A stretch of DNA of 64,000 nucleotides from an uncultured Candidatus Saccharibacteria bacterium (GTDB lineage: Bacteria > Patescibacteriota > Minisyncoccia > UBA6257 > 2-01-FULL-56-20): positions 50,458 to 114,457 of the forward strand of contig CAZDFQ010000001.1 of the NCBI GenBank assembly GCA_964505005.1, written 5' to 3'. The notes below the pieces were generated by a model. That model was not told where the DNA came from. It saw nothing but the letters and a program-made list of their open reading frames with translations, and searched no databases. Each line of letters opens with the position of its first letter. Position 1 is the stretch's first letter. Position numbers and translations under genes: made by a program. This document shows positions 27,763-62,666 of the stretch, in pieces.

Positions 27763-27767
27763 AAAAG

Positions 27768-40556: not shown

Positions 40557-42830
40557 TTACTTTTCCAATTTTAGCGATACTATTTTTGAAGTGCCGTCGT
40601 CATTGAGAGTGACGCCGTATAAGACATCAGCCACTTCCATCACCTCGCGGTTATGGGTAACGATAATGAACTGCGTTTTTTGGGAAAATTCTTTAAGGAT
40701 TTTTCCGAAGCGCTGCGAATTCCGCGAATCAAGCGCGGCGTCTATCTCGTCAAGGACCAGAAACGGCGGCGGGCTGACTGAAATCAAGGCAAAAAGCGCG
40801 GCAATGCCGACCAAGCTTTTTTCTCCGCCGGAAAGCGTCTCCAAAGAGCTGATTCTTTTGCGAGGCAAGCTCAAACTTATTTCAATGCCTTCTTCGATTT
40901 CTTTTTCTTCTTCATTACTATTGACTTTGTCTTGAGTAACTTCCCGTACCACTTCCTCCCCATTTTTGTTTTCTTGTCTCTTGCCTCTTGCCTGCCCGCC
41001 AAAGCCCTCGCCTTGCCGAAGCCGTCGGCGAAGCGCAGGTTGGCGCAGGCGGGTCTCTTGTCGCCCGATTTTCAGCCTAGCGTTGCCGCCGTCAAACATC
41101 AGCCGGAAAAATTTATTAAACTCCTCATTGATTTCGCCGAGCGCTTCCCTGAATTCATCTTTAATTTTTTTCTTCAATTCTTCAATCAATACCTCTAAAT
41201 CATTTTTGGCTTTCCCAAGGTCTTCAAATTGTTGTTTCAGAAAATGAAAACGTTCTTCGGTTTCTCTCGATTCTTTAAGAATGACTTCATCAATCTCACC
41301 AATGGCGGCTAAATCGCCTCTCAGCTTGAAAATCCGTTTTTCCAACGACTCAGCTGGAACGTCCCCGGCGGCTATTGTCGGCAGATTCCTGAATTCTTCA
41401 ATTGAGCGATTGGCTTGTTCAATCTGGCGTTCGAGCTCGGCCACCCGCAGCCTTAGCCGTTCTTTCTCAAATAAACGTTCCTGATTCCGATTCTCCCATT
41501 TTTCAATTTTCTCTTTGACCACATTGATTCGGGCCGCGGCATTTTTGAACAAGCCGTAGAATTCATCCCGATGTTTAGCGAGCTCTTCTTCTTTCGTCTG
41601 AAGGTCGGAAATGTTCTTAGCGAATTCCTGCAATTGAACATTTAATTCTTTGAGCCGAGTCTCAACGGCCGAGGAAGATTTATTGGTCTCTTTATCGGCG
41701 GTGAAAGGGACGACTGAAGAAACGAAATTCCTGATTTCTTCGATGGTTTCGCGCACGGCCGAACGTAAAGAATCAATCTCTCCGTCAGCGGTTTTCTCCA
41801 ACCTGTCTTTTATCTTCTCTAAAAAGCCGAGGGGTTTTGCCGCCGAGATAACGAATTCTTTGTCCTCTTTTTCGCCGATTCTACCAAGTTCGAGTTCGGC
41901 TTCCAAGCGCCCCAATTCTTTCTGAAGTCGGCTCCGTTTCTCAAAAAGCGAATTTAATTCTTTTTTGATTCCCTCCAGTTCTTTTCGTTCATGAGGCTGG
42001 CTGGCTTCGATTTTCTGGAGATTTTCTTCGGCGGCTTTTTTCTCTTCGTTCAGAATTTTCAATTCGCCGGCATGGCTTTCGATTTCTTTTTCAATTTCGG
42101 AAATTATTTTTTGAAGAACCTGCCACTGGTTTCCGAAAAACTGATTCTCCAGTTCGCGGAGTTCTTTTTCCAGGATTTCCCGTTTTTCCCAGCGGCCGGT
42201 CTGGCGCTTTAGCGAACGGAGGTGCGGCAGAATTTCTTTTAGTAAAGCATCGACTTTCTCAAAATTAATCTGGGTATTCTTCAATTGGCGCTCGCTGGAA
42301 ATTTTTTTAAGCTGATACTCCCGAAGACCGAGCATCTCTTCCAGCATTTCCCGTCTCTCTGGCGGCGAAACCCGGACGAAAACATCGCTGTTGCCCTGGG
42401 TGACAACCACCAGTCCTTTGGTTCCCAGCCGGGCTTTAGCGAAGAAATCAATCAGATTTTTCAGACGAATCTCTGCTTTATTCAGAAAAAACTTATTCGT
42501 ACCGTCGCGATTAACCTGACGCGAAACCGAAATTTCAGAGAACTCGAGGGGGAAAAAATTATTTTCATTCTCAAAATGAAGCACGGCCTGGGCCTGGCCC
42601 AGCCGCGGCTTTTTCGGCGTTCCGGCGAAAATTAAATCTTCTGATTTGGCGCTCCGAAGATTCCGGGCCTCCCGTTCGCCCAGCAACCAGCGGACCGCGT
42701 CGATGATATTTGACTTTCCGGAGCCATTAGGGCCGACAATGGCTGTAATGCCGGTCGGCAATTCAATGACTGTTTTCTGGGCAAAAGATTTAAATCCGTT
42801 GAGCTCGAGACGTTTGAGAAGATGAGGCAT
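40557..42830 (-). CDS. smc: chromosome segregation ATPase SMC (short, 757 aa) with a GC-rich in-frame insertion near the C-terminal head
   Basis: N-terminal LELNGFKSF...IVGPNGSGKSNIIDAVRWLLGE; C-terminal LSGGEKSLVGIAALFAL...LVLDEIDAALD; ~60% GC segment 40930-41110 encodes RLRQPALRRRLRQGEGFGGQARGKRQE... Confidence 0.8.
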   Translation of the reverse strand: MPHLLKRLELNGFKSFAQKTVIELPTGITAIVGPNGSGKSNIIDAVRWLLGEREARNLRSAKSEDLIFAGTPKKPRLGQAQAVLHFENENNFFPLEFSEISVSRQVNRDGTNKFFLNKAEIRLKNLIDFFAKARLGTKGLVVVTQGNSDVFVRVSPPERREMLEEMLGLREYQLKKISSERQLKNTQINFEKVDALLKEILPHLRSLKRQTGRWEKREILEKELRELENQFFGNQWQVLQKIISEIEKEIESHAGELKILNEEKKAAEENLQKIEASQPHERKELEGIKKELNSLFEKRSRLQKELGRLEAELELGRIGEKEDKEFVISAAKPLGFLEKIKDRLEKTADGEIDSLRSAVRETIEEIRNFVSSVVPFTADKETNKSSSAVETRLKELNVQLQEFAKNISDLQTKEEELAKHRDEFYGLFKNAAARINVVKEKIEKWENRNQERLFEKERLRLRVAELERQIEQANRSIEEFRNLPTIAAGDVPAESLEKRIFKLRGDLAAIGEIDEVILKESRETEERFHFLKQQFEDLGKAKNDLEVLIEELKKKIKDEFREALGEINEEFNKFFRLMFDGGNARLKIGRQETRLRQPALRRRLRQGEGFGGQARGKRQENKNGEEVVREVTQDKVNSNEEEKEIEEGIEISLSLPRKRISSLETLSGGEKSLVGIAALFALISVSPPPFLVLDEIDAALDSRNSQRFGKILKEFSQKTQFIIVTHNREVMEVADVLYGVTLNDDGTSKIVSLKLEK

Positions 42831-42975
42831 AATCGTAAATTTCTAAATCCGAATTTCTAAACAAATCCCAAAAATCCCAATTACCCAATAACCAATTAAC
42901 CTAATATCTAATTTGGGCATTTCCCTCGTTGGTCATTGATTAGGTCAATTAGGAATTAGGAATTAGTCATTTAAT
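42831..42975. repeat. composite palindromic intergenic repeat (family 1)
   Basis: aatcgtaaatttctaaatccgaatttctaaacaaatcccaaaaatcccaattacccaataaccaattaacc ... ggtcattgattaggtcaattaggaattaggaattagtc. Confidence 0.65.
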
Positions 42976-43677
42976 TTACTTATACTTCTCCAGCGCCTTC
43001 TTGGCAGCCGCCAGTTCCGCTTCCTGCTTGGAAGAACCCAGTCCTTCGGCAGTCAACTCCTCCTCGAAATAGACGCCGATTCGAAAGGTACGCTGATGAG
43101 CCGGCCCACTTTCTTCTAAAACCCGGTAGTTCGGCGTTATTTTAAGTTTCTCCTGGATTAATTCCTGGAGTTCACTCTTTGAATCTTTGTAACTTTTGGT
43201 TTCCAGAATTTCGGGAAGATGCGGCAGAATAAGCCGGCTGATAAAACCAACCGCGGCTTCATAGCCGGCGTCGAGATAAATCGCTCCGATGAGCGCCTCA
43301 ATAGCATTAGCCAGGATTACTTCTCTCGCTTTGGAAGTGTCGGCGCGTTCGCCTTTGGACATAAAAATATAGTCGTCCAAATGGAAGCTGGCGGCAATCC
43401 GGCCCAGCATCTGGTAATTTACCAGCGCGGCCCGAAACATCGTCAGCTGCCCCTCGGCCTCTTGAGGAAATTGTTGGAAGAGTTTTTCGCTGACTGCCAA
43501 TTCCAAAACAGCGTCGCCCAAATATTCCAGCCGTTCATTGTTGGGAAACGGCCAGTCGCTTCTTTCATTCAGATACGAACGATGAGTCAACGCTTCTCTC
43601 AGGAAATCTTTATTTTTAAAATTGAAACCGATAACGGCTTCGAGTTCTTCAAGGAGATGAGATTGATTATTATTCAT
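42976..43677 (-). CDS. rnc: ribonuclease III
   Basis: 233 aa; ERLEYLGDAVLELAVS RNase III signature plus C-terminal dsRBD. Confidence 0.9.
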   Translation of the reverse strand: MNNNQSHLLEELEAVIGFNFKNKDFLREALTHRSYLNERSDWPFPNNERLEYLGDAVLELAVSEKLFQQFPQEAEGQLTMFRAALVNYQMLGRIAASFHLDDYIFMSKGERADTSKAREVILANAIEALIGAIYLDAGYEAAVGFISRLILPHLPEILETKSYKDSKSELQELIQEKLKITPNYRVLEESGPAHQRTFRIGVYFEEELTAEGLGSSKQEAELAAAKKALEKYK

Positions 43678-43898
43678 TTCAATTCTAAAGATCTTAAAAC
43701 ATATTCGTATAATTCGTATGCCATTCGTAGATTAGGATTATATCTCAAGCAACTCGGCATAATGCGAATAATACCTGCCCGCCAATTGCCTTCTAAGATG
43801 ACTGGGATAATAATTTGGACATTTCCGACCGTTTTGAAATCACTACTAAAATTTGATTGACAGGCTTTGGCAGGCGGGCGAATTCTTATGCGAATTAT
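43678..43898. repeat. intergenic repeat (family 2, ATTCGTA/CGAATA units) with GCAGGCGGGCG hairpin
   Basis: catattcgtataattcgtatgccattcgtagattaggatt...cataatgcgaataatacctgcccgcc...ggcaggcgggcgaattcttatgcgaattattt. Confidence 0.55.
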
Positions 43899-44342
43899 TT
43901 AACTCTCTTTAGCGTTATCTTCCTCTTTATGGATTTCGCGGTAGACCGTTCCCAGAACGCCGTTTATAAATTTGACTGAATTCGGCGCGCCGTAATTTTT
44001 GGCTATTTCCACGGCTTCATTGATGGCTACCTTGGGCGGCACCTCGCTGGGGTCAGCGTATAAAAGCTCATAGAGGCCCAGTCGCAAAACGTTTCTATCA
44101 ATCATCGCAATCTTCGGGATTGGCCACTCCGGCGCGGCTTTCTCAATGATTTTGTCGATTTCCGGCAGATGCTCGGCGAGCCCCTTCAAAATCTTCCAGG
44201 CGAATTCCGGTTCGTCAATGCCCGGCGCGAACTCCTCGAGATTCCGCTCCAAAATAGTGGTTAAATCTTTCTTCCGGTCGTAGAAGTCCCATTCATAGAG
44301 TGCCTGGAGAATCACGCTTCTTATAAGATGTCGGGTGGCCAT
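43899..44342 (-). CDS. nusB: transcription antitermination factor NusB
   Basis: 147 aa; [20 protein letters not shown]... NusB fold signature. Confidence 0.85.
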
Positions 44343-44423
44343 CGTTTTAAGTTTGTAAGTTATAAGTTTATAAGTTCTAAAGGGAATTAACTTATCGACT
44401 TAAAAACTTATGAACTTCTCAAC

Positions 44424-44573
44424 TTACTTGCCGCATTGCGGACAAAGCCGATGCGGCATTTTAGGGCCGCCGCAGTTTTTGCAAGCCAAAAGACGCCTCT
44501 TCTTCAAAGCTAAATGCGACCGGCGCCGGCCGACTTTACCTTTGGTGTGATGTTTTACTGGTACGCCACCCAT
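44424..44573 (-). CDS. rpmF: 50S ribosomal protein L32 (zinc-ribbon type), 49 aa, missed by ORF track (below 60 aa)
   Basis: Minus-strand ATG at 44573: MGGVPVKHHTKGKVGRRRSHLALKKRRLLACKNCGGPKMPHRLCPQCGK; matches L32 RRSH...CxNCG...HR.C..CG. Confidence 0.8.
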   Translation of the reverse strand: MGGVPVKHHTKGKVGRRRSHLALKKRRLLACKNCGGPKMPHRLCPQCGK

Positions 44574-44654
44574 TATTCCGAGAATCTCTAAATTCTAAGT
44601 TCTAATCTCTAAAATTTTGAATTTCGATATTTGAGATTGTTTAGAGATTAGAGT
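44574..44654. repeat. composite palindromic intergenic repeat (family 1)
   Basis: aatctctaaattctaagttctaatctctaaaattttgaatttcgatatttgagattgtttagagattagagtttaaagattagagatt. Confidence 0.65.
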
Positions 44655-45461
44655 TTAAAGATTAGAGATTATGTTAGAATATTTTTTCAGAAACGTCAAT
44701 CTGTGCATAAGAATAGGACCGTATTTTTTTATCCTTGCGCGGTGCACTTTCGTTCCGTATCCTTTATGAATTTCGAAGCCGTATTGAGAATATTTTTTCG
44801 ACAATTTCTTCATATATTCGTCGCGGCTCACTTTAGCGATAATTGAAGCGATTTTGATGGCCGTGATTTTTTCATCGCCCCGGACCACGGTTTTAGGATT
44901 TAGGGTATAGCCAATAGCCATTAGGTTTTTTTTATCAAGAAACAGCCCGCCATCCAAATAAATTTTCGCCCTAGTGGCTAAACCCCGGTGGCTAGTGGCT
45001 AATCTAAGGAGGGCGCGGCTGGCGGCCCGATTGGCGGCTCGGGCAATGTTCAGTCGTTCTATGCCGCGCGGATAAACGCGGCTTATTTTGTACAAGAGGC
45101 CCGGGTGCTGCTTTAAATACTTAAACCAGGCGGCTCTTTGAGAAGCAGAAAGTTTTTTTGAATCCCGAAGTTTCCCTAGGGCACGATTTGCGATTTGCGA
45201 TTTGCGATTTGCCGGCAACGCAACTGCCGCGACCACCACCGGGCCAGCTAAAGCTCCCCGCCCCACTTCATCAATGCCAATGACATAGGATTGTCGGGCG
45301 AGGCTCGTCCGTTTTCGGACGGCCCGCCCCACTTCATCTATTCCTATCACGAATGAATGACGGGGCGCCCGCTCCGACTCGCATCGAGCGAGGCGAGGGG
45401 CTCGCCTTTTTAAGGCGCCCCGGCCGACTTCATCGATACCAATGACCCAACGCCTTGTCAT
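44655..45461 (-). CDS. rnhB: ribonuclease HII with N-terminal triplication of the VIGIDEVGRG active-site segment separated by GC-rich hairpin inserts
   Basis: 268 aa; WVIGIDEVGRGALKRRAPRLARCESERAPRHSF / VIGIDEVGRAVRKRTSLARQSY / VIGIDEVGRGALAGPVVVAAVALP; then ...DSKKLS... RNase HII core; nucleotide level: three copies of ccccgccccacttcatc(a/t)a(t)gccaatgac with hairpin spacers (45230-45461). Confidence 0.8.
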   Translation of the reverse strand: MTRRWVIGIDEVGRGALKRRAPRLARCESERAPRHSFVIGIDEVGRAVRKRTSLARQSYVIGIDEVGRGALAGPVVVAAVALPANRKSQIANRALGKLRDSKKLSASQRAAWFKYLKQHPGLLYKISRVYPRGIERLNIARAANRAASRALLRLATSHRGLATRAKIYLDGGLFLDKKNLMAIGYTLNPKTVVRGDEKITAIKIASIIAKVSRDEYMKKLSKKYSQYGFEIHKGYGTKVHRARIKKYGPILMHRLTFLKKYSNIISNL

Positions 45462-47296
45462 TCGACGGTCACGCTTTTTGCCAAATTGCGCGGTTTATCG
45501 ACATCGCGTCCCAATCTCACAGCCAGATGATAAGCGAAAAGGTGAAGCGGCATGACCGAAAGAAGCGGCGTCAGCATTTCCAAAGTTTTCGGAATGTAAA
45601 TTATATCGTCGGCCAATTCGGCAACTTTTTTGTCGCCGGCTGTCGCAATGGCGATTATTTTCCCATGGCGGGCTTTTACTTCTTGGGCATTGGAAAAATT
45701 TTTCTCATACAGGCTGTCGCTCGGCATAATAAAAAAGGAGGGAAAGTCTTTATCGATAAGGGCAATCGGGCCATGTTTCATTTCGCCGGCGCCGTAGCCC
45801 TCGGCGTGAATGTAAGAAACCTCTTTAAGTTTCAAGGCGCCTTCCAGAGCAATGGGATAATTGTATTTTCTGCCCAAAAAGAAAAAATCTCGCGCTTCAG
45901 AATATTTATCCGCCAATTTTTTTATTTTTGCGTTTTCTTTTAGAACTTGCCGCATCTTCTCTGGCAATTCTTGAAGTTCCCTGACAATCCGTTTGCCCAT
46001 TGTCAGAGACATTCCCCGTTGTCTTCCCAAAAAAAGCGTCAAAAGAGCCAGAACAGCCAGCTGGGAAGCGAAGGCCTTGGTGGAGGCAACGGCGATTTCC
46101 GGACCGGCATGATTATACACGCCGGCCTCGGTGAGGCGGCTGATGCTTGAACCCACGGTGTTCACGATGCCCAAAGTAAGGATGCCTTTTCGCTTCGCTT
46201 CCTCGAGTGCCGCCAACGTATCCGCCGTTTCTCCGGACTGGCTCACTGCCAGAAGAGCGGTGGCCGGCAGAAACGCTGCTTCGCGATAGCGCAGTTCAGA
46301 AGCCGAATGCACTTCAACAGGAAGATGAGCATAGGCCTCAAGCATATATTCGCCCACCAGCGCCGCGTAATAAGCAGTTCCGCATCCCGTTATGACGAGA
46401 TTTTTAATGTTCCGCAGCTCTTTTTCCGAATTTTCCAAGCCGCCAAGTTTGGCCAGTCCGTCTTTCGGTATCAGTCGGCCGCGGAGCGCGTTTTCGACTG
46501 CTTCCGGTTCTTCGAATATTTCTTTGAGCATAAAATGCGGGAAACCCTGTTTTGAAATGCGGGCAACATCCCATTCAATGGTCTGCGCTGTTCTCTTTAC
46601 TTCTTTCAGACCGGCGGAGAAAATCCGGCAGCTGTTCCTCTCTATTACTGCGCACTCGCCATCATTCAGGTAAACCACCTCTCGCGTGTACGGAACAATG
46701 GCTGAAGCATCGGAGGCGACGAAATATTCACCTTTACCTAAGCCTAAAATGAGCGGACTGGACTCGCGCACGGCCACAATTTTTTCTTCCGAGGAACTAA
46801 GAATAACGAGAGCATACGAACCCTTGAGAAGATGCCTTGCTTGGAATACTGCTTCCGCAAGCGTCGTTGACGGCTTCCGTTTCATTATTTCTTCAAGCAA
46901 ATGCGGTACTACCTCGGTATCCGTTTCGGAACTGAACTTGTGCCCCAATTTTTTAAGTCGCAAACGTAATTCTTTGTAGTTCTCGACAATGCCGTTATGC
47001 GCCACGAAAATGTTCTTCCGGCAATCGGAATGCGGATGGGCGTTCCGGTCGGACGGCTCGCCGTGGGTTGCCCAGCGAGTGTGGAAAATACCGATGCCAT
47101 AGTCTTTTTCGAGCGGCAATTTCGGCTCCAGGGCAGAGATTCTTCCTTTCGATTTTCTCGAAAAAATCTTTCCTTTGCCGTTCCACAAGGCCGCCCCGGC
47201 GCTGTCATAGCCGCGATATTCCAGCCGTTTCAACCCCTCAAGGAGTTCAGCGAGCGGTTTTTTATTTTCGCCGATGTAACCAAAAATGCCGCACAT
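45458..47296 (-). CDS. glmS: glutamine--fructose-6-phosphate aminotransferase
   Basis: 612 aa; MCGIFGYIG Ntn-amidotransferase start, two SIS domains, C-terminal ...KPRNLAKSVTVE. Confidence 0.9.
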   Translation of the reverse strand: MCGIFGYIGENKKPLAELLEGLKRLEYRGYDSAGAALWNGKGKIFSRKSKGRISALEPKLPLEKDYGIGIFHTRWATHGEPSDRNAHPHSDCRKNIFVAHNGIVENYKELRLRLKKLGHKFSSETDTEVVPHLLEEIMKRKPSTTLAEAVFQARHLLKGSYALVILSSSEEKIVAVRESSPLILGLGKGEYFVASDASAIVPYTREVVYLNDGECAVIERNSCRIFSAGLKEVKRTAQTIEWDVARISKQGFPHFMLKEIFEEPEAVENALRGRLIPKDGLAKLGGLENSEKELRNIKNLVITGCGTAYYAALVGEYMLEAYAHLPVEVHSASELRYREAAFLPATALLAVSQSGETADTLAALEEAKRKGILTLGIVNTVGSSISRLTEAGVYNHAGPEIAVASTKAFASQLAVLALLTLFLGRQRGMSLTMGKRIVRELQELPEKMRQVLKENAKIKKLADKYSEARDFFFLGRKYNYPIALEGALKLKEVSYIHAEGYGAGEMKHGPIALIDKDFPSFFIMPSDSLYEKNFSNAQEVKARHGKIIAIATAGDKKVAELADDIIYIPKTLEMLTPLLSVMPLHLFAYHLAVRLGRDVDKPRNLAKSVTVE

Positions 47297-47465
47297 ACTT
47301 TAAAAATCCAAATTTCAAAATCCAAATGACAAATTAATAACTAAAATTCAAAAAGTTTTTGACTTTTGGGCTTTGGATTTGATTTGAAATTTGGGCTTTG
47401 AAATTCGCCATTTAGGCTGTTTTGTTTGATGCCAAAAGACGAATAATAGATTTATAAGATGGGCT
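47297..47465. repeat. composite palindromic intergenic repeat (family 1, CCAAAT/ATTTGG variant)
   Basis: aaaaatccaaatttcaaaatccaaatgacaaatt...tttgggctttggatttgatttgaaatttgggctttgaaattcgcc. Confidence 0.65.
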
Positions 47466-48503
47466 TTAAAGCAACGACAAAATAACTTTAGCGAGTTTCC
47501 TGTGGCTGTGACGGATGAATTTCCCAGAATCAAGGAGGTCGGTTAAAATATACTTTGGCTTTTTTTGTTTCAAATTAACCCCGCACCTTTTGGTGAACGA
47601 ATCTCGTGTTTTTTTTATGTGGAGCGGTCTTCGCGTGAGCTTCCTGCTAAAAGGTGCGGGGTTAAGACCGGCAGGGTCCACGAATTCGGATTTTTCTTTT
47701 TGATAGCGTTGAAGGATGCGCTGGGGCGGTTTTTTATTATTAAAAATAACATAATCTATAACTCCTTTTCCTAAATAGGTTTCGAGGGCCTGGATAAAAT
47801 CGGCTGCCCGGAAGTTGTGAGTTTCGCCGAATTTCGTCATTAAATTTGCGATATAAACTTTTTTGGCTTTTGATTTTCGGATTTCCTCGGGCAGGCCTTT
47901 AACCAGCAAATTGGGAATTAAGCTCGTGTAAAGGTCGCCGGGGCCAAGGATAATCAGGTCGACGTTTTTCAGAATTTTCTTTATCCTCGGGTTCATCCTG
48001 GCGGCTGGCTCGAGCCAAATTTTTTTAATGGCTGACCTCGCCGAACTTTTCGGAATGTCGATATTCGTTTCTCCTTTCAGGGTCTTGCCGTCGGCAAGCT
48101 TGGCATAAAGCCGGACATTGTCCAAAGTTACCGGCACCACCTCGCCTCGAATGTTCAAAACCTGCGAGGCCTCGCGAACCGCTGAAGCAAAATCACCGGT
48201 CATTTTCTCCAGGGCGCTCAAAAATAAATTACCTAAACTGTGACCATGCAAACTGCCTTGGCTGAAACGGTAATTAAAAAGCTCGCGGAGTGTTTCGCTT
48301 GATTCGGAAAGAGCCACCAGCACCCGCCTTATGTCTCCGGGCGGCAACACGCCGTACTGGTCCCGTAATATGCCGCTGGAACCGCCGTCATCAGCCATGG
48401 AAACGACGGCAGTCAAATTAACCGGATAGGGCTTAAGCGCGGTTAAAACTGCGAAATTGCCAGTGCCGCCGCCGATGGTAACAACATTTTTTCTTCTCAT
48501 CAT
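47466..48503 (-). CDS. CofD/YvcK (UPF0052) family protein with C-terminal extension encoded by a hairpin-forming insert
   Basis: 345 aa; MMRRKNVVTIGGGTGNFAVLTALK...MADDGGSSG; C-terminal ~60 aa encoded by 47560-47700 containing CCCCGCACCTTTT...AAAAGGTGCGGGG 13-bp inverted repeat. Confidence 0.7.
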   Translation of the reverse strand: MMRRKNVVTIGGGTGNFAVLTALKPYPVNLTAVVSMADDGGSSGILRDQYGVLPPGDIRRVLVALSESSETLRELFNYRFSQGSLHGHSLGNLFLSALEKMTGDFASAVREASQVLNIRGEVVPVTLDNVRLYAKLADGKTLKGETNIDIPKSSARSAIKKIWLEPAARMNPRIKKILKNVDLIILGPGDLYTSLIPNLLVKGLPEEIRKSKAKKVYIANLMTKFGETHNFRAADFIQALETYLGKGVIDYVIFNNKKPPQRILQRYQKEKSEFVDPAGLNPAPFSRKLTRRPLHIKKTRDSFTKRCGVNLKQKKPKYILTDLLDSGKFIRHSHRKLAKVILSLL

Positions 48504-48598
48504 TTATATCATACCTAAATTCGTCATCATTGCCATATTAAAAGCGCCGCTCTAAAAACAACGCACCCCGCCTGACGCAAATCAGCCAAACGGGGTGG

Positions 48599-49260: not shown

Positions 49261-49549
49261 TGCCGCGGGGGTGAATCGAACACCCGACGCCATGCTCTTC
49301 CATAAGGACTATATCATCATCCGGTTTTCAAACGGATGCGAGGCGCTTCCTCCGACGTAACGTCGGCGTACTCCCAAAGGGATAGTCTCTACACCTGCCC
49401 CGGCTAATGTCGGGGATTGGCTCGGGATTGTCCGCCCCATCCGTAGATGCCGGCGGAGTTCCCCCGAATTCACCTCGTTTTCATCTAAGCATTACTGCTT
49501 AGCGGCCCGAAGATTCCAGGCATGCGCTCTACCACTGAGCTACCGCGGC
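49261..49549 (-). tRNA. tRNA (probably Phe, anticodon GAA after splicing) interrupted by a ~217-nt group I intron in the anticodon loop
   Basis: 5' exon GCCGCGGTAGCTCAGTGGTAGAGCGCATGCCT (49549-49518), 3' exon GAAGAGCATGGCGTCGGGTGTTCGATTCACCCCCGCGGCA (49300-49261); intron (49517-49301) ends in G, preceding exon ends in U, and contains GGTGTAGAGACTA and CCGAGCCAA, near-identical to the Azoarcus tRNA-Ile group I (IC3) intron core; exon junction and anticodon are inferred. Confidence 0.65.
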
Positions 49550-52103: not shown

Positions 52104-52462
52104 GAAGGAGGTGAAGGGAGAAGCTGTTTGACAAGGGCGACCGTTTCGGTTGGGCGATGTAGCTGTCAGGGCGGGGTGACCGTTGGGGTTGGGCGAGCTG
52201 TACGGATGGGGTGACCATTCTCCGGGGGCGAGCTGTTTCATCTGGGTGGCCGTAATTGAGGGGCGCAGTAACCAACTCGCTAAGGAGGTGATGAGAGCTG
52301 TGTTTATGGGGTGACCGTTTATCCGGGGCGAGCTGTATGAGGTGGGTGGCCGTCTTGTGAGGGCGAGCTGTTCTTTAAGGGTGACCGTGGCCCATGGGTG
52401 AGCTGTTGTAGCAGGGTGACCGTAGAAAATGGGCGTAGTAACTACGCCGAAGGAGGAATGAA
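52104..52462. repeat. array of alternating short direct repeats R1 GGGCGAGCTGT and R2 GGGTGACCGT, each followed by a variable 7-mer (35-bp period, ~8 units), upstream of the IS110-like ORF
   Basis: e.g. gggcgagctgt-acggatg-gggtgaccat-tctccgg-gggcgagctgt-ttcatct-gggtggccgt-aattgag...; units 1, 5 and the last are split by SD-containing inserts (AAGGAGGTGA...). Confidence 0.75.
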
Positions 52463-53248
52463 ATGGAGACGAGGAAGACGGGGCTGAACGAGTTGGAAGA
52501 GCGGATCGTCGTGGCTGCGTACAAGCTGGTGGAAGCCCAGCGGCAGCGCGGCCGCATCGGCCGGATAATCGGCAGAATCAAGCCGACAGCTGGCCGAAAC
52601 GGTTGGAAGCCCAAGCCGCCTGGGCCACTCCGGCATCTCCGCGTCCAGGCCTTCGCCGAAGTCGGCTTCAGCGAACCCGAATACGAGGCCTGGGAGCCGA
52701 AGATCGAGGAGTACCGACAGGAGCTCCAGGCGCTCGTGCGTGAGCATCCGGTTTGGACCACTTGGGCTGTCAAGGTGCCGGGTCTTGGGAAGACGATGAC
52801 CGGCCTGGTAATGGCCGCCATCGGCGATGTGACGCGGGTGCACACCGCGTCCGGGCTCTGGAAGTCGTTTGGCCTCCATGTGGACAACGAGACCAAAATG
52901 GCGGTCAAGCCCCAACCCGGCGTACCCGGTACGCTTGGCCATCCGTTCGCCAGGAAAATCCTGGGCGTGATGCGGTCAACCTACTTCCGCATCGGCGCCA
53001 AGGGCCAGGGCGGTTTCTATTACGACCGCTACCTGGAGAAGCGCCGGGAGTACGACCAAGCGCATCCGGACTGGCCCGAAGGCCGGCGCCTGGGCGCGGC
53101 AATCCGCAAGTTCGAGAAACTTCTCCTCTCCCACATCTGGGAGGTGTGGAGAAGGTCCAAGGGCCTACCGGTGTTGCCGCCTTATGCCGTGGCCCAACCC
53201 TGGAGCCTGCACAAAAAAATCAGGCCCGAGGAAGCGATGGCGCAGTAA
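52463..53248 (+). CDS. IS110-family transposase C-terminal (Transposase_20-like, HhH/IGD) domain protein lacking the DEDD RuvC-like N-domain; Arg-rich N-terminus
   Basis: 261 aa; VKVPGLGKTMTGLVMAAIGDVTRVHTASGLWKSFGLHVDNETKMAVKPQPG fits IS110 C-domain (IPGIG..TA..L.AEIGD..RF.S...L..Y.GL.P....SG); N-term RQRGRIGRIIGRIKPTAGRNGWKPKPP; strong [18 protein letters not shown]; ~62% GC. Confidence 0.5.
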   Translation: METRKTGLNELEERIVVAAYKLVEAQRQRGRIGRIIGRIKPTAGRNGWKPKPPGPLRHLRVQAFAEVGFSEPEYEAWEPKIEEYRQELQALVREHPVWTTWAVKVPGLGKTMTGLVMAAIGDVTRVHTASGLWKSFGLHVDNETKMAVKPQPGVPGTLGHPFARKILGVMRSTYFRIGAKGQGGFYYDRYLEKRREYDQAHPDWPEGRRLGAAIRKFEKLLLSHIWEVWRRSKGLPVLPPYAVAQPWSLHKKIRPEEAMAQ

Positions 53249-53452
53249 GCCCGAAGGGTAAACTGTATGAATTGGGTGCCCGTACGTCTGGGGCGAGCTG
53301 TTTGCATTGGGTGACCGTTTTTGCGGGGCGAGCCGTACTACGCGGAGTGACCGTGGCCCGAGGGCGAGCTGTTTGACAAGGGCGACCGTGGTTGTTGGGC
53401 GAGCTGTGGGGGCTGGGTGACCGTTTCGAGAGGGCGCTGTTCAACAAAAGGA
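53249..53452. repeat. downstream array of the same R1/R2 + 7-mer units (~7 units)
   Basis: ggggcgagctgt-ttgcatt-gggtgaccgt-ttttgcg-gggcgagccgt-actacgc-ggagtgaccgt-ggcccga-gggcgagctgt-ttgacaa-gggcgaccgt-...; 7-mer ttgacaa also present in upstream array. Confidence 0.75.
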
Positions 53453-53454
53453 GG

Positions 53455-53686: not shown

Positions 53687-53687
53687 T

Positions 53688-57431: not shown

Positions 57432-57507
57432 AATATAAATTAACTATTATTATATCGCATATGTGATATAATAATAGTAAGAATAACTTAGCTGCCAAAT
57501 CTTTGAA

Positions 57508-58641
57508 TCAGCCGTGTCTTATCACCACCACATCGCCATCTTGGACCTCGTATTCTTTCCCTTCCAGCCGAATCAAACCTTTCTGCTTGGCCTGATTCCA
57601 GCAGTTCGACTGCCCTGAGCTCACCGTTGAAGGGCCGCCCGCCTCAATCAGTTTTTGCCAATTAATCACTTCGGCTCTGATGAATTTTTTCTCAAAATCC
57701 GAATGAATCACGCCGGCCGCTTCTGGCGCGAGCGTCCCCTTTTTGATTGTCCAAGCCCGAGTTTCGTCTTCGCCGGTGGTGAAAAAACTTATTAAATCAA
57801 GAATCTCATAACTCTTTTTTATCAAATCCGACATTCTCACATTCTGCAGAATGTGAGAATGTTCTGTTTCGGCCAAGTCGGCGATGATATAATCTGCGTC
57901 CAGCTCTTTTATTTTCTGCCGGAGTTCCACCGAAACATCGAACTCCTTGCCGTTCAGCAAATAAATCTGTTTTTTGGCTGTGAGTAAATTCAACTCAACT
58001 ATGGAACCATTCCCGCCTTCGCCAAGGCTTCGGCGGGCAGGCGCTCGCTTGTCCGCCGTAGTTTTAACGGAGGCGGAAATTAGAGACATAATTTCATCTG
58101 AACTCACCGGCAGATTCCCTTTCTCCAGCCATTCTTTGAGCCGTTGAAGAGCATCTTTTGTCTGGAGCGCTTCTTTTTTGCCGGTACGGGCTTCTGATTC
58201 AGCTTTATCCAGCCGGCGCGAAACCGTTTCCAAATCCTTAAAAATCAATTCCGTGTTTATTGTTTCCAAGTCGCGCAACGAGTCCGGCTCGCCCTCGATA
58301 TGAATGATTTCCGGATTTTTGAAAACGCGGAGAACAATTACAATCGCCTGGGTTTCCCGGATGTGCGACAAAAACTGGTTGCCGAGCCCCTCGCCCTTGT
58401 AAGACCCTTTAACCAGGCCGGCAATGTCATAAAACTCCACCACGGCCGGAATGATTTTTTTCGAATGGCTGATTTCCGCCAGTTTCTGGAGCCGCTCATC
58501 CGGCACCGAAACCACGCCGACATTCGGGTCAATCGTCGCAAACGGGTAATTGGCGATATTAACTTCCTGTTTGGTTAAAATTTTAAAAAGCGTCGATTTG
58601 CCGACGTTCGGCAAACCGACGATGCCAATAGATAGTTTCAT
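57508..58641 (-). CDS. ychF: ribosome-binding ATPase YchF (Obg-family GTPase) carrying an in-frame GC-hairpin insertion
   Basis: 377 aa; MKLSIGIVGLPNVGKSTLFKILT, C-terminal TGS (...GKEYEVQDGDVVVIRHG); insert ~57990-58060 (cccgccttcgccaaggcttcggcggg) encodes ...KRAPARRSLGEGGNGS... Confidence 0.85.
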   Translation of the reverse strand: MKLSIGIVGLPNVGKSTLFKILTKQEVNIANYPFATIDPNVGVVSVPDERLQKLAEISHSKKIIPAVVEFYDIAGLVKGSYKGEGLGNQFLSHIRETQAIVIVLRVFKNPEIIHIEGEPDSLRDLETINTELIFKDLETVSRRLDKAESEARTGKKEALQTKDALQRLKEWLEKGNLPVSSDEIMSLISASVKTTADKRAPARRSLGEGGNGSIVELNLLTAKKQIYLLNGKEFDVSVELRQKIKELDADYIIADLAETEHSHILQNVRMSDLIKKSYEILDLISFFTTGEDETRAWTIKKGTLAPEAAGVIHSDFEKKFIRAEVINWQKLIEAGGPSTVSSGQSNCWNQAKQKGLIRLEGKEYEVQDGDVVVIRHG

Positions 58642-58905
58642 AAAGTTAGAAATTAAAGATGAGAAATGAGAAATTAGGACTGCTCCAGAGATATTCTACA
58701 ATCGGTAGCGAGAAGAAAGCAATTGTAGGGCATTTGTTTTCGAGGAGCGAACCGATTGGTGAAGTGAAGCTTCATACAACTACAACTATTCGCATCATTC
58801 GCCTAACATTCGCAGATTAGCATTATGTTTGAAAACAAAAGGGAACCGGTCATCGCGCAGTTGCCCGAACTGCGCTCGCGGTTCCCGAACTCTTGGGCTT
58901 AGGGG

Positions 58906-59436
58906 CTATCTTACGAAGTACGGCCGGTGTTCCGGCGCCGGCCTGACCGAACCCGGTTGCGGCTGGCGATGGGGCTGGTATGGGTCGCCGCAGGCGTCCT
59001 GATGGACCCGACCGTCTCGGTCTGTCCACCCCTCGCCGCGGAGCACCGCGGCCAGGGCCTGGCCGGCAACGGCCCGCAGTAGCCCATCCCCCTTGTTCGC
59101 GAAGTGGAGGGGGACGGGAAGGATGATGACGCCGTCTCCCTTCTGGAAACGAAGGGAGAATTTCCTGAGGCCGGGGGTGTCGGCCAAAAACACCCCTTCA
59201 TAGGCCCCGCTTTTGAGGGTCACGTTCCGGGTTTCGCCATTGGCGAGCCGAACCGAGAGCTGACCCTCACGGCTGGAGATTGATTCCTTCCAGCCGCTGA
59301 ATTCCATACATCGGCCGCGGGGGCCGGGGTCGGAAGCCATGGCGACCATAGCTTCCAAAACTTTCTCGCCAGCGCCCCCGCGCGCTGACGAAATAACGCC
59401 TGTCAACTGCTTCCCGGGTCTCACATACCTCGCCAT
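58906..59436 (-). CDS. hypothetical protein in a ~63% GC islet
   Basis: 176 aa ORF, no motif recognised; GC-rich context produces many spurious ORFs, so weak. Confidence 0.25.
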   Translation of the reverse strand: MARYVRPGKQLTGVISSARGGAGEKVLEAMVAMASDPGPRGRCMEFSGWKESISSREGQLSVRLANGETRNVTLKSGAYEGVFLADTPGLRKFSLRFQKGDGVIILPVPLHFANKGDGLLRAVAGQALAAVLRGEGWTDRDGRVHQDACGDPYQPHRQPQPGSVRPAPEHRPYFVR

Positions 59437-59643
59437 AGCACGCCCCCCTTAATTTAGTAATGACAAATTGCTCCCCCTCCTCCGACTCCAGTCGGAGAAG
59501 TTCAAACCGCCCTATTGCGGTCTGAAGATTGGGTATGCGAATGGCCTTGGCGAATAGGCACATGCGAATTTTACTTATTCGAGGATACCCAATCTTCAAA
59601 TCGCAAAAAACATTTTTAGAATAAAATGTCTTTCTGGTCTTTG

Positions 59644-60885
59644 TCAACTCCGCGCGGACTTTGTCTCGAGTTGCCTCATAATTTTATTTTTCTCCGAAAG
59701 TTCGATTTTGGACTTGGCAACCGCTTTTTTCATAATTTCAATGGTCTGGTCGTAAGTTGGCCGGTCAATAGGATAGGGCGTGGCGTCTTTGCCGCCAAAA
59801 GCGAAACTGTAGCGCGCCGGGTCTTCATAAGACGGCTCGGCGCCGTAGATTACTTCGGAAACCAAGGAGAGGGCCCGAACTGTTTTGGGACCAACGCCAG
59901 CCGTTGAAAGAAGTTTCTCATATTTCTCTGGTTTTTCATCAGTGAGTTTGGCGAGAATTTTTTCGAGATAGCGGCTGTTCCAGAAATTCTCGTTTTCCAC
60001 CGGATGGTGACGAAATTCAATATTTTGAAGTTCAAGCCAGCTGAACAATTCTCCCTGCCGGTTTTTCAGGCCAATCATCTGGCTCAATCGCGAGGTATGC
60101 CGCCGGATGAGTTGGATATCTTTCATCAAGGTTTTAAAACTAGCTTCAACCAATTCCACGCTCGTTTGCCGCGTGCCTTCGCTTCTTTGAGCAGTCAAAT
60201 CAAGGGTCGGCGCTTTAAGCCCCGAGACAATGCCGCTGTGCGGCTCGCAAACTAAATCTTTTATGTTCCCCGAATACCAATGATATCTTCTGGCCGTGAC
60301 GGCTTCGGTATTCATCCCCTGCTGAATGACAGCCCAAGAACCGGAACGACTGAAGAAAAATGAGTGATGATAAATCTGAAAGCCGTCCTGCACCAGAGCC
60401 GAATCAACCTTGGCCGCCATTTTGGAATTATAAGTCAGATTACTGACTACGCCGCCGGCTAAGCCGAGCCGCGAACCCCAGCTTTTAATTTCCTCGGGCG
60501 TTTTCCGTGAGGTCCTACCTTTGCCGCCGCAAATGAAAATTCCCAATTCTTTTTCCTGGCCGCGAATCGCTTCTTTGAGCGCAGCGGTTAGAATCGTGGT
60601 CAGGCCACTCGCATTCCAATCAAAAGCCAAGACCGTACCCAGAGATTGGAACCATACCGGGTCGCTGATTCTTCTGATAAATTCATCGGGTCCGAGCTCG
60701 GCAACTAAAATTTCGGTCATTTGGCGGCCGAGTTTGACCATCCGCTGAAAAAGCCATTTAGGGCAACGGCCTTCGTCAAGAGTAAATGTGGCAATGCCGC
60801 GGTTCATAATTATCCATTGTACTCTCTTTTGTACTCTCTTTCTAACCGCGTTCCTACCAATCTCCTCCCCACATTTCTCGTTCAA
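59644..60885 (-). CDS. DUF763-like protein (hypothetical)
   Basis: 413 aa; probable start at internal MNRGIATFTLDEGRCPKWLFQRMVKLGRQMTEILV (~60807); resembles the conserved N-terminus of DUF763 proteins from memory only. Confidence 0.4.
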   Translation of the reverse strand: MNEKCGEEIGRNAVRKRVQKRVQWIIMNRGIATFTLDEGRCPKWLFQRMVKLGRQMTEILVAELGPDEFIRRISDPVWFQSLGTVLAFDWNASGLTTILTAALKEAIRGQEKELGIFICGGKGRTSRKTPEEIKSWGSRLGLAGGVVSNLTYNSKMAAKVDSALVQDGFQIYHHSFFFSRSGSWAVIQQGMNTEAVTARRYHWYSGNIKDLVCEPHSGIVSGLKAPTLDLTAQRSEGTRQTSVELVEASFKTLMKDIQLIRRHTSRLSQMIGLKNRQGELFSWLELQNIEFRHHPVENENFWNSRYLEKILAKLTDEKPEKYEKLLSTAGVGPKTVRALSLVSEVIYGAEPSYEDPARYSFAFGGKDATPYPIDRPTYDQTIEIMKKAVAKSKIELSEKNKIMRQLETKSARS

Positions 60886-61111
60886 AGGCGCGAGCTTCTC
60901 GCCGTTGCTCTTCCGAAGGATTTTTAAGCCGCTCCTCTATCAAATGCCACTCCAAAAGATTGCCGCGATTAGTTCGAATCCGGCGGACATACACATCTTC
61001 CTTTTTTATACCGGGTGGCAATTGCTCCCACCAGTTATCAGTATCCTCAACGACGCCCTTTACTATTTGCGCCAACTCCTCTTCTTCCTTGAATTTAGAT
61101 TCGTCTTCCAT
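60854..61111 (-). CDS. small hypothetical protein
   Basis: 85 aa, charged, no motif. Confidence 0.25.
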   Translation of the reverse strand: MEDESKFKEEEELAQIVKGVVEDTDNWWEQLPPGIKKEDVYVRRIRTNRGNLLEWHLIEERLKNPSEEQRREARAFEREMWGGDW

Positions 61112-61202
61112 ACTAAACTAATACCTCAGGCGATTTCGTTTTCTTATTTAATAAATTTATGAGTCCGCATCATTCGCCTAAGTATTCGCGATATCCGCAT
61201 TA

Positions 61203-61829
61203 TTATCTTCTATTATAACGCCCCATAAGTTCGGCTTGAGCTAAGATATGTCCTTCCATAACAGCCAGAAGATTGTTTTTCGTGGTTGTTTCTTTTGGCA
61301 AATCAAGTTCAGTATCAAGGGCGTAAATCTTGAAAAAGTAACGATGCTCGCGGTCAGGCGGACAAGGACTCTGGTAGCCGAACCGGCCGCCAGTATTTTT
61401 GCCGACTACTCCTTCGGGAGTTGCTCCTTCAGAAATAACGCTTGTTTGCGGCGGGATATTCCAAACAAGCCAATGGTCCCAGACGCCGTCGGGCCTAATT
61501 GATTTCGGCGCATCCGGGTCATCCATAGTCAAAACCAAACTCTTGGCATTTTCCGGAACGCCGTCTATCCGCAATTCAGGACTGATATTCTGGCCAGCGC
61601 AGGTGTATTTGACGGGGATGACCCCGCCGTTATTGAAAGCCGGGCTTTGAATATTCATAGCTTTTGAAATTAAGGTTTCCGGCGGCGACTGGGGCGGAGA
61701 CAAAACAGTTGACGGTTCTGTTGGTTTAAGCTTTGGCCCGGGCACCAAAATCAGAACCGCCAGCATAATCAAAATCAGTGCTCCCAACCCGATTGCGATT
61801 ATTATAATATTTTTCTGCATTTCAAACAA
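61203..61829 (-). CDS. YbhB/YbcL (PEBP/RKIP-like) family protein, membrane-anchored
   Basis: 208 aa; N-terminal TM; ...DPDAP...HWLVWNIP...HRYFFKIYALD PEBP signature. Confidence 0.75.
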   Translation of the reverse strand: MFEMQKNIIIIAIGLGALILIMLAVLILVPGPKLKPTEPSTVLSPPQSPPETLISKAMNIQSPAFNNGGVIPVKYTCAGQNISPELRIDGVPENAKSLVLTMDDPDAPKSIRPDGVWDHWLVWNIPPQTSVISEGATPEGVVGKNTGGRFGYQSPCPPDREHRYFFKIYALDTELDLPKETTTKNNLLAVMEGHILAQAELMGRYNRR

Positions 61830-62154
61830 TTTGGTTTTTCAGCCAAGCAAAATATTTCCGATTAAAACTTACCGGGATTTTGGCGATACAGGGAATAGAA
61901 TAAGGATGAATTTTCTCCACTTCTTTTTTTATTTTTCCAAAATCAGCCGCGGCGGTTTTGGCAAGCAAAATATATTCATTTTCATCCACCAATTTTCCTC
62001 CCCAATGATATAAACTATTTACCGGCCCGAAAATATTGGCGCAGGCAATCAATTTTCTCTTCAGGAGATGCCGGGCGACGCGGCGGGCTTGTTTTTTTGA
62101 CGGATTGGTAATGTAAATAAAAAGAGCTCGCATAAATTTTATTGTCTGAACCAC
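61822..62154 (-). CDS. cutA: divalent-cation tolerance protein CutA
   Basis: 110 aa; ...CANIFGPVNSLYHWGGKLVDENEYILLAKT...HPYSIPCI CutA1 pattern. Confidence 0.7.
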   Translation of the reverse strand: MVQTIKFMRALFIYITNPSKKQARRVARHLLKRKLIACANIFGPVNSLYHWGGKLVDENEYILLAKTAAADFGKIKKEVEKIHPYSIPCIAKIPVSFNRKYFAWLKNQIV

Positions 62155-62666
62155 TTGGATTTCTTGAATTTCTTCAGGCCTTCAGTCCTTCTCTCGTCTT
62201 TGGCATCCTCGTTCTTCAGAAAGTCCTCGTACTCTCCCCGCAGAAATCCAACCATAATTTCGCTTCTCGGCTTGCTCGTCCCCGGATAGCGCCAGGCGCT
62301 GATTATTTTAATAACTTCTTGTCCCTTGTCGCTTGTCCCTTTTCGCTTTTTTTGGAGCATTACCCAAATCTCCTGATTCCAGGTCTCTTGCCTCTTGTCT
62401 TCTCTTGCTGAAGCGGGTTTGCCCGCCCAAGTTTTCCCGTGGAAAATTTGGGTGGGCTGCATCATGGCGATGGTTTTCGGCGCGATGCCTTCTTCAATGC
62501 GCTTGGGCGAATGGATAACCCGCTTGACTCTCGCTTCGGACAGCCGGTAGAAACGCATTTTCTCGCGGCTGTGATAGGTCCAATATAACCGGGTAGTAGA
62601 AATTCGATTTATTTCAGCTGACATTTTTGTTTTTACTCGACTTGACGATACTATCCTGAGACACAA
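62139..62666 (-). CDS. DUF4258-like N-terminal domain protein with C-terminal extension containing GC-rich in-frame inserts
   Basis: 175 aa; ...YWTYHSREKMRFYRLSEARVKRVIHSPKRIEEG fits the DUF4258 H..R...R.IS...V..VI..P..IE pattern; inserts ~62300-62440 share gtctcttgcctcttg and gcccgcc(c)aag with the smc insert. Confidence 0.4.
   Translation of the reverse strand: MCLRIVSSSRVKTKMSAEINRISTTRLYWTYHSREKMRFYRLSEARVKRVIHSPKRIEEGIAPKTIAMMQPTQIFHGKTWAGKPASAREDKRQETWNQEIWVMLQKKRKGTSDKGQEVIKIISAWRYPGTSKPRSEIMVGFLRGEYEDFLKNEDAKDERRTEGLKKFKKSKWFRQ

Follow-up and report, generated by a model that had tools for sequence, protein, structure and literature searches.

A conserved, locus-specific hairpin module with a repeated active-site strand in rnhB, and in-frame palindromic inserts of several kinds in other genes of a Patescibacteria genome

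Background

Rickettsia palindromic elements (RPEs) are short palindromes found in frame in housekeeping genes of a reduced genome, in surface or variable regions of the encoded proteins (PMC10969869). Here we ask whether the same kind of element accounts for the GC-rich hairpins that lie in frame inside several genes of an uncultured Candidatus Saccharibacteria bacterium. The DNA analysed is a stretch of 64,000 nt from contig CAZDFQ010000001.1, hereafter called the window, and the main subject is rnhB, the gene of ribonuclease HII (RNase HII), whose 5´ end carries three copies of its own active-site strand separated by palindromic spacers. The initial annotation of the window had regarded the hairpins of rnhB, smc, ychF, a CofD/YvcK-like gene and a "DUF4258" gene as one RPE-like set. 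That observation is largely real and its interpretation as a single family is partly right. Lineage-specific hairpins do lie in frame in smc, ychF, yvcK and also dnaK; they do not form one family, and the reading holds neither for rnhB nor for the "DUF4258" gene. The rnhB array is a conserved, locus-specific and copy-number-variable module of uncertain function.

Results

Architecture of the rnhB array

The motif (W/F/Y)VIGIDEVGR is present three times in frame at the start of rnhB (Table 1). As the initial annotation stated, the spacers between the copies form GC-rich hairpins, and both fold better than shuffled sequences, against which all z-values of fold strength given here were calculated. 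Spacer 1 is composed of two inner hairpins enclosed by the closing arms GGGGCGCC and GGCGCCCC, giving a three-way structure (-40.9 kcal/mol, z -3.4). Spacer 2, together with the preceding GGGCGG (Gly-Arg codons), forms a 14-bp hairpin (-27.9 kcal/mol, z -5.6). Long spacers homologous to spacer 1 are found at the related loci L013, L161 and L162, and the core of spacer 2 is common to at least 12 other genomes. Rfam 15 gave no match at gathering score at the rnhB gene of the window, and the sole match to positions 45150-45550 at E up to 5 was noise.

Residues D64 and E65 of copy 3 are invariant across 120 homologs. In the AlphaFold (AF2) model of the rnhB product, with a predicted local distance difference test score (pLDDT) of 84.5, copy 3 forms strand beta-1 (E59-66); the same model contains a helix at aa 43-55 (pLDDT ~76-81) and has low confidence for aa 1-40. 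Within the GIDEVGR codons, copy 1 differs from copy 3 by four synonymous changes and copy 2 differs from it by two, with no non-synonymous change in either comparison.

A further repeat lies downstream in the same gene. The heptamer CAAATCG occurs there in four perfect copies (45184-45212, minus strand) encoding ..NRKSQIANR.., and since this peptide is also present in the orthologs P0013 and P0090, the heptamer repeat lies within conserved coding sequence.

Table 1. Positions, in the window, of the rnhB array and of the other features considered
Feature	Position	Strand	Basis
rnhB (RNase HII), 268 aa, MTRR start	44655..45461	-	ORF and translation; Pfam RNase_HII 8.9e-33, aa 61-258
Copy 1 of active-site strand, WVIGIDEVGR (TGGGTCATTGGTATCGATGAAGTCGGCCGG)	45420..45449	-	sequence
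Spacer 1, long "type A", 66 nt, translated GALKRRAPRLARCESERAPRHS	45354..45419	-	sequence
Copy 2, FVIGIDEVGR	45324..45353	-	sequence
Spacer 2, short "type B", 36 nt, GCCGTCCGAAAACGGACGAGCCTCGCCCGACAATCC, translated AVRKRTSLARQS	45288..45323	-	sequence
Copy 3, YVIGIDEVGR, native beta-strand 1 with catalytic D and E	45258..45287	-	alignment with position 1 of the Pfam profile
smc in-frame GC hairpin insert, ~15-18 aa (...ALRRRLRQGEGFGGQARG...), 63 nt	40991..41053	-	ortholog alignment
ychF in-frame GC double-hairpin insert, ~20 aa (SVKTTADKRAPARRSLGEGG)	58011..58078	-	ortholog comparison
ychF perfect 14-bp-stem AT-rich palindrome ACATTCTCACATTCTGCAGAATGTGAGAATGT (HSHILQNV)	57831..57862	-	z -5.7
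yvcK/CofD internal in-frame insert near C-terminus, ~30 aa (~91 nt)	47575..47665	-	ortholog comparison
dnaK C-terminal (lid) in-frame insert, ~11 aa	32822..32860	-	homologous to inner hairpin of spacer 1
Conserved Patescibacteria hypothetical protein (first labelled "DUF4258")	62139..62666	-	orthologs

Distribution of the module and its restriction to rnhB

The module is present in 17 of the 120 best rnhB homologs (50-63% identical), each with two or three N-terminal copies. The spacers of these homologs are recognisably alike, being translated as GRAARKRASLARQ, as GRAASKRRASP or, in the long form, as AAKRRASRLARASAKRAP, and the DNA of 16 carrier genomes has a common spacer core, GCCGCC-loop-GGCGAGCCTCGCCC. 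The view that the rnhB segments are lineage-specific inserts fails at this point, for orthologs of 50-60% identity possess the same spacer core. Five of the 44 GTDB species representatives with this motif type carry the module in two to four copies, among them a Campbellbacteria contig with at least four copies. More divergent carriers turned up among 1.84 billion cluster representatives searched, one of them having three copies and tandem hairpin units inside the spacers. A metagenome scan with the N-terminal peptide yielded, among the matches listed, at least one new duplicated locus, L081. About 90% of lineages are devoid of the module.

Related DNA amounting to 160 loci and 1.6 Mb was scanned for the rnhB core. 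The exact 13-mer GGCGAGCCTCGCC occurs in rnhB spacers only, and 15 of the 16 sites matching the 14-mer GGCGAGCCTCGCCC with at most one mismatch are in rnhB. RPEs are dispersed multicopy families; this core, in contrast, was met nowhere but in rnhB, both across the window and across the 1.6 Mb, the one mismatched site aside. No other open reading frame (ORF) of these loci displayed the copy-spacer-copy layout, and orphan motif copies far from rnhB, expected of a large integrated element, were absent from the 160 loci. With its core essentially limited to one locus and no other gene having the copy-spacer-copy layout, the rnhB array does not behave as a dispersed mobile element. Neither is it a private insertion; it is an old, locus-specific and strain-variable module. 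All gaps found by nucleotide motif alone are in frame and stop-free (15 of 15), and the same applies to at least 20 aligned units. Viral contigs scanned for the spacer pattern gave six matches, all of them chance hits in ParB-like phage genes of ~70% GC and none in RNase HII. Searches of the accessible literature for palindromic inserts in the candidate phyla radiation (CPR) or for duplications in rnhB gave nothing relevant, and no account of the module came to light there.

Conservation of the hairpin as nucleic acid and of the strand as protein

The spacer core is translated as ASLA in nine spacers, as RASP in 15 and as G(E/R)PRP in two; the first two frames were read in DNA and the third was inferred from protein only. 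Since the core is read in different frames, its peptide is not the conserved thing. The linker is R/K-rich in all frames. Pairing, on the other hand, is preserved: in the nested hairpin 90.6% of cells are paired, as against 33-49% with slid partners, and three of its pairs show compensatory change (e.g. GTCCG/CGGAC, GCCCG/CGGGC, GCTCG/CGAGC). Wobble pairs lean to the sense strand (13 G-U vs 4 A-C), a weak tendency coming mostly from one invariant column.

The 3´ arm of the hairpin, GAGCCTCGCCCGAC, is identical to the reverse complement of GTC GGG CGA GGC TC, which encodes V-G-R-G-S, and can therefore pair with either flanking copy. When the whole unit is folded, pairing with the downstream partner is favoured in about 10 of 17 genomes. 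In this alternative helix, 83% of cells are paired vs 32-52% when slid. In 11 of 16 genomes the downstream Val codon has a wobble base that pairs with the first base of the linker (permutation p = 0.018). Further, the Gly-Arg codons of the last copy are GGG CGR in 15 of 16 duplicated genes and in only 20 of 67 single-copy genes (Fisher p = 3e-6), and those of upstream copies are less fixed than the downstream ones. The bias towards GGG CGR indicates that presence of the hairpin constrains synonymous sites ~35 nt downstream.

The repeated strand follows a different rule. Comparison of 20 upstream copies with the native copy of the same genome over the seven GIDEVGR codons revealed 64 synonymous and nine non-synonymous differences. 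The proportions of synonymous (pS) and non-synonymous (pN) differences are 0.57 and 0.029, giving pN/pS of 0.05 (binomial test against site proportions, p = 1e-27). Such a high pS combined with low pN means that the copies are old relative to synonymous saturation, yet constrained. Six of the 20 upstream copies carry a substitution in the heptad, mostly at positions invariant in 120 functional sequences and including D to N and E to K; constraint on upstream copies is relaxed relative to the native copy. Conservation of the hairpin is thus at the level of nucleic acid, and that of the repeated strand at the level of protein.

Copy-number changes and origin of the array

One cluster at 90% identity (Parcubacteria GW2011_GWA1_59_11 and relatives) consists of five members of 219 aa and eight of 197 aa, exactly 22 residues apart. 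At the DNA level, an identical two-copy array is present in seven independent assemblies and a single copy in three; the difference is exactly 66 nt, and gene body and flanks are 98-100% identical between the two kinds. Recurrence of the array in seven independent assemblies of one species, and in many data sets and assemblers, rules out an assembly artefact.

The lone copy of the shorter alleles is identical to copy 1 at 28 of 30 positions. Between copies 1 and 2 there are eight synonymous changes, and with differences at 8 of 30 positions a fresh local duplication in this polymorphic species is ruled out. Divergence of the copies between near-identical flanks implies that the duplication is far older than the ~2% strain split. 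One carrier, L176, combines the upstream haplotype of carriers with the body haplotype of non-carriers and is a recombinant. The simplest reading is that a recent precise loss took place between GGNCGG repeats, with allelic exchange between the two forms.

Two other ways of moving the array as a cassette were rejected. A mobile unit made of a spacer and its downstream copy is incompatible with the downstream copies being no more alike than synonymous drift allows, in contrast to the spacer core. Inclusion of the promoter or start region is ruled out by upstream DNA, which shows no relationship between one carrier genome and another, although all retain a native M-(K/R)-(Y/F/W) start. Residues rich in K and R precede each downstream copy and resemble the native N-terminus, the CTC GCC of the hairpin 3´ arm is, in the ASLA frame, in phase with the native Leu-Ala codons after G-R-G-A, and the native GGGCGR..CTCGCC is already a small quasi-palindrome. 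These three traits fit an in-frame tandem duplication of approximately the first 15 codons.

Another kind of change was observed in the read-derived P0133, from the cluster of P0030, where the CofD C-terminus is fused to rnhB and IIGIDEVGRGC is wholly gone. Either an assembly error or a null allele produced by deletion at this hotspot may explain it.

In-frame inserts in other genes

The smc insert is indeed an in-frame GC hairpin, although not of ~180 bp as first described: alignment with 30 orthologs, none of which has it, limits it to 63 nt (~15-18 aa). It is located in a hypervariable acidic linker, is bordered by an 8-nt direct repeat CAAGAGAC read from the sequence, and folds weakly better than chance (z -2.1). 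The core CCTGCCCGCCRAAGCC is common to the smc and ychF inserts, on opposite strands.

The ychF hairpin insert noted at the outset proved sound. It is found neither at L027 nor in 119 other homologs, being unique among 120, and its fold is strong (-37.4 kcal/mol, z -3.3). Its 3´ hairpin core, CCCGCCGAAGC..GGCGGG, recurs in Paceibacterota at L023, L082/L083, L021, L037 and L040, both between genes and inside long ORFs. The same gene contains the AT-rich palindrome of Table 1, whose HSHILQNV peptide is present at the same site in five orthologs, and a third, widespread insert of "..SSGQ.." type; in this group, the sites of variable insertion in YchF number a dozen or more.

The rnhB gene of the closest relative, L013, likewise contains two perfect palindromes rich in AT, AACATTCTAACATTCTGCAGAATGTTAGAATGTT and AACTATTCTAATATTCTTAAGAATATTAGAATAG, in frame in its variable middle part (10410-10500). 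The former is near-identical to the ychF palindrome of the window, the latter is related to it, and another copy is present elsewhere in L013.

The inverted-repeat element of the CofD/YvcK gene exists as well; it is not a terminal extension, as had been supposed, but an internal insert with perfect 17-bp terminal inverted repeats TTAACCCCGCACCTTTT at 47575-47591 and 47649-47665. It is not present at L020 and L010, and its fold is better than chance (z -4.9). The repeat core recurs at L081, at the 3´ end of rpsP, around a different interior. [quoted passage not shown] Both contain TTAA, and a target-site duplication is indistinguishable from the repeat itself.

The dnaK insert, which the initial annotation did not list and which is not present in the orthologs at L016 and L005, is identical at 28 of 31 nt to positions 45365-45395 in rnhB spacer 1 (z 12).

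Pairwise alignment of the inserts revealed limited nucleotide similarity. Three pairs stand out: rnhB spacer 1 and dnaK (z 12), smc and ychF (z 4.1), and the two rnhB spacers (z 4.2). Most insert pairs are at chance level, and the inserts are not one family. Those of smc, ychF, yvcK and dnaK are single-copy in the window. The proposed resemblance of the inserts to an intergenic double-hairpin family (D10) is not strong for any of those listed at first. Against three D10 copies, smc reached z 3.1 with one and rnhB spacer 2 z 4.0 with another, values that are borderline given 45 comparisons; chance level was not exceeded by ychF or yvcK.

The "DUF4258" gene, said to share insert strings with smc, has to be taken off the list. 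Translation of the 15-mer common to both genes, CAAGAGGCAAGAGAC, gives KRQET(W), and orthologs conserve this peptide as well as KRQETWNQEIWVM of the same ORF. Its fold is no better than chance (z -1.2), and the adjacent variable stretch varies in all members. The label itself is not supported: DUF4258 scores E = 0.06, under the Pfam cut-off, and no Pfam match at 0.001 or better exists.

Genomic context

The proteins encoded in the window have their best homologs in metagenome bins assigned to Candidatus Paceibacterota, Liptonbacteria and Patescibacteria, and the analysis placed the window in a genome of the Paceibacterota (CPR). The minus-strand order at 40-48 kb is glmS, rnhB, nusB, rnc, smc, with yvcK/CofD upstream, and the order rnhB-nusB-rnc-smc is kept in related loci. 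The start codon of rnhB overlaps the glmS stop codon (ATGA).

Discussion

With moderate confidence, we favour the explanation that two different things had been pooled. The first would be RPE-type tolerated inserts of several families. Those of smc, ychF, yvcK and dnaK are short (33-95 nt), lineage-specific, in-frame palindromic inserts in variable surface or linker regions. They belong to several small hairpin or inverted-repeat families, some recurring across Paceibacterota between genes and within ORFs, and behave like selfish DNA tolerated in proteins.

The second would be an ancient, locus-specific tandem duplication in rnhB, remodelled by hairpins. It probably began as an in-frame duplication of about the first 15 codons (K-Y-V-I-G-I-D-E-V-G-R-G-A-L-A). 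The upstream unit would have been dispensable, so that the natural quasi-palindrome GGGCGR...CTCGCC could be extended into a strong GC hairpin, and the module would then have been passed on vertically with copy number varying from one to at least four. The reading frame is always kept, which implies that the rnhB spacers are translated by read-through. The product would have a basic, mostly disordered N-terminal extension, with the last copy as the catalytic strand according to the AF2 model. The effect we favour, as judged from the sequences, is one exerted in cis on rnhB mRNA, where the hairpin would throttle or gate translation or stability and copy number would serve as a tuning knob. Retention despite easy deletion, compensation in the stem and constraint on downstream codons argue that the structure is selected. 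Upstream copies may stay intact because they and the single-copy alleles belong to one gene pool, for which the recombinant L176 is evidence. Competition for the beta-1 slot may be a second cause, since a defective copy there would poison the enzyme.

Several points weigh against this explanation. Covariation is thin, with four cells for the nested hairpin, and the downstream helix does not exceed its shuffle control (96 of 500). The star-like tree of 119 homologs by neighbour joining makes the clustering of carriers uninformative, and many losses and several gains are inseparable. The dnaK copy means that the hairpin segment of spacer 1 can move, and it is the sole sign of a piece of rnhB spacer copied elsewhere. 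Differing frames of the core need paired indels and could reflect independent insertions. A function at the RNA level alone does not fully account for the strong purifying selection that the upstream copies experience, and the choice of the last copy by AF2 is biased by an alignment of mostly single-copy sequences.

A tentative alternative, which we consider possible though doubtful, is that the hairpin is a functional RNA or DNA element acting in cis, which became embedded in coding sequence by pairing with catalytic-motif codons and carries a spare motif that lets the enzyme survive, or else a site-specific element that makes a ~30-nt target duplication. Toggling of the pairing partner between upstream and downstream copy, or change of copy number, would then set RNase HII output.

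That rnhB was invaded by an RPE- or MITE-like mobile palindrome, a selfish dispersed hairpin inserting into ORFs and surviving where the frame is kept, seems unlikely. The inserts of smc, ychF, yvcK and dnaK fit such an element: the ychF core recurs in long ORFs and intergenic regions of other genomes, the yvcK terminal repeats recur at L081, and dnaK holds a duplicate of part of rnhB spacer 1. The multi-frame rnhB core would likewise be expected from independent insertions filtered by frame. Yet that core is confined to one locus in 1.6 Mb, the set of inserts is not one family, and the flanking 30 nt are always copied too, which no RPE or MITE mechanism yields. Moreover, a fresh target duplication is excluded in the polymorphic species, whose copies differ at 8 of 30 positions between flanks at least 98% identical.

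We are similarly disinclined to believe that the protein itself is what is selected, in the form of a basic N-terminal extension that binds nucleic acid or regulates the enzyme (e.g. an autoinhibitory or strand-competing pseudo-beta-1), with the hairpin as a by-product of GC-rich Gly/Arg/Ala codons. N-terminal extensions serve substrate binding in some RNase H enzymes, such as RNase HII of Bacillus stearothermophilus and RNase H1 with its hybrid-binding domain. Strong amino-acid purifying selection on the upstream copies, an R/K-rich linker in every frame and the predicted helix at aa 43-55 (pLDDT ~76-81) would agree with such a role. Against it, the core is kept as nucleotides across frames while its peptide is not, and compensatory stem changes alter the peptide (V..T vs A..A) and keep the pairing. 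Six of 20 upstream copies have GIDEVGR substitutions, among them catalytic D to N and E to K, and residues 1-40 are predicted to be disordered.

Absence of any function is improbable. The array would then be a neutral tandem duplication, its arms kept alike by intrastrand template switching (quasi-palindrome correction), that is slowly being lost. Such correction would account for the 3´ arm being an exact inverted copy of V-G-R-G codons and for the linker base following the neighbouring Val wobble base, and gradual loss would agree with one documented loss and with ~90% of lineages lacking the module. However, pN/pS of 0.05 at pS of 0.57 and the hold on downstream GGG CGR codons (p = 3e-6) are unexpected for a neutral array, and its persistence through saturating synonymous divergence, despite easy precise deletion, points to selection or drive.

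Programmed bypassing, with take-off at the upstream GGG CGG, a slide over the hairpin and landing on the codons of the next copy to give a native-length enzyme, is very improbable: a stable hairpin does begin at the candidate take-off codons, matched GGG CGG flank about half of the units with an almost invariant landing side, and upstream and downstream copies are both constrained, but the gaps are all in frame and stop-free rather than unreadable, which bypassing does not need and which points to read-through, the take-off and landing codons differ at L013, L081 and L167, and no stop follows the take-off codon, unlike T4 gene 60, where a stop codon does.

Several known systems resemble parts of what we describe. 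The smc, ychF, yvcK and dnaK inserts match RPEs in effect, as palindromes lying in frame in ORFs without disrupting them. RPEs are dispersed multicopy elements of ~100-150 bp with a peptide conserved in one frame, whereas the inserts here are heterogeneous and 33-95 nt long, and the rnhB element is single-locus and multi-frame and is accompanied by duplication of a coding segment. In fungal mitochondria, mobile GC clusters, double-hairpin elements and "byp" elements are dispersed, and byps break the frame and are bypassed. The likeness lies in GC hairpins that enter coding regions of an AT-richer genome, sometimes in tandem, as with the tandem hairpin units of P0137; the rnhB spacers differ in being always in frame and locus-specific.

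Like contingency tandem repeats, the rnhB units are in-frame 5´ direct repeats whose copy number differs between close strains (one or two copies, the 197- and 219-aa alleles) and between lineages (two to four). They differ in that the units are 60-96 nt long, the copies are synonymously diverged (pS 0.57) and the repeated peptide is the enzyme's own catalytic strand; with such long, diverged units, simple slipped-strand switching is unlikely to be fast or reversible. Products of template switching at quasi-palindromes are normally sporadic mutations. The forward-inverted-forward layout and the precise loss between GGNCGG repeats flanking the hairpin recall them, but the rnhB product is conserved across deep divergence and looks constrained.

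The array is not of the clustered regularly interspaced short palindromic repeats (CRISPR) type or the tandem interspaced guide RNA (TIGR) type either, since its repeats are coding and conserved only as protein, and its spacers are homologous across genomes. Nevertheless, the nearest precedent from the same bacteria for structured RNA units in coding sequence with the frame intact are the arrays of TIGR guide RNAs (tigRNAs), which lie in frame in CPR tas genes, in disordered protein regions (bioRxiv 10.64898/2026.09.09.750476). The rnhB spacers differ from them in lacking both box C/D-like motifs and variable guide segments and in lying outside any tas gene.

Unexplained insertions abound in proteins of CPR/Patescibacteria, and at least part of these are hairpin-forming DNA of several small families, tolerated in variable loops. 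The rnhB module is unusual among them as a conserved nucleic-acid structure within an ORF, formed from the antisense of catalytic-motif codons, flanked by constrained extra translated copies, and subject to gain or loss, between strains, of one exact unit. The co-evolution of structure and coding can be studied on it with relative ease, as can the way in which hairpin-plus-repeat architectures drive precise indels, and whoever annotates or aligns RNase HII from these phyla should be aware of it. If the proposed action in cis is true, CPR bacteria would possess a regulatory module of a new kind, lying inside a gene.

Other features of the window

A 59% GC island contains two arrays (52122-52436 and 53261-53445) of 35-36-nt units, AGCTGT-N7-GGGYGACCGT-N7-GGGCGA. 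Between them lies an ORF of 261 aa (52463-53248, plus strand) without Pfam match, which is similar to PDB 9mty_A, an IS110-family C-terminal-domain protein (E = 6e-11). In its layout, the region 52122-53445 looks like a TIGR-Tas locus; such loci have been reported in CPR bacteria (bioRxiv 10.64898/2026.09.09.750476). The unit of this TIGR-like array differs from the rnhB spacers.

On the minus strand at 27590-28095, tRNA-Lys(UUU) is followed 17 nt on by a partial copy of itself, whose anticodon loop holds the 31-nt intergenic double hairpin TCAGCCAGAGGCTGATCCGCCTTTGGCGGA. A tRNA-like 5´ half that also carries this hairpin is present upstream, together with a GIY-YIG ORF (27768-28013, Pfam 1.5e-11). 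The region is another instance of a hairpin with flanking duplication. Positions 49295-49527 (minus strand), between an S1-domain gene and a small ORF, match a group I intron in Rfam (63.6 bits, E = 8e-14).

Most intergenic spacers are made up of AT-rich heptamer arrays (CTAATTT, AAATCCT and similar) in long inverted repeats, often with a central TCCGCC-N3/4-GGCGGA hairpin; examples are 2512-2637, 5366-5488, 39550-39688, 44583-44672 and 47301-47414. These may be bidirectional terminators. Two families of perfect intergenic palindromes, TTACTAT..TATATCACAATTGTGATATA.. (D13) and TGTTATGCTATAGCATAACA (D18), occupy 28881-28985, 39090, 57441 and 62780, and 38127, 40508, 49672 and 53576, respectively, and look like operator sites.

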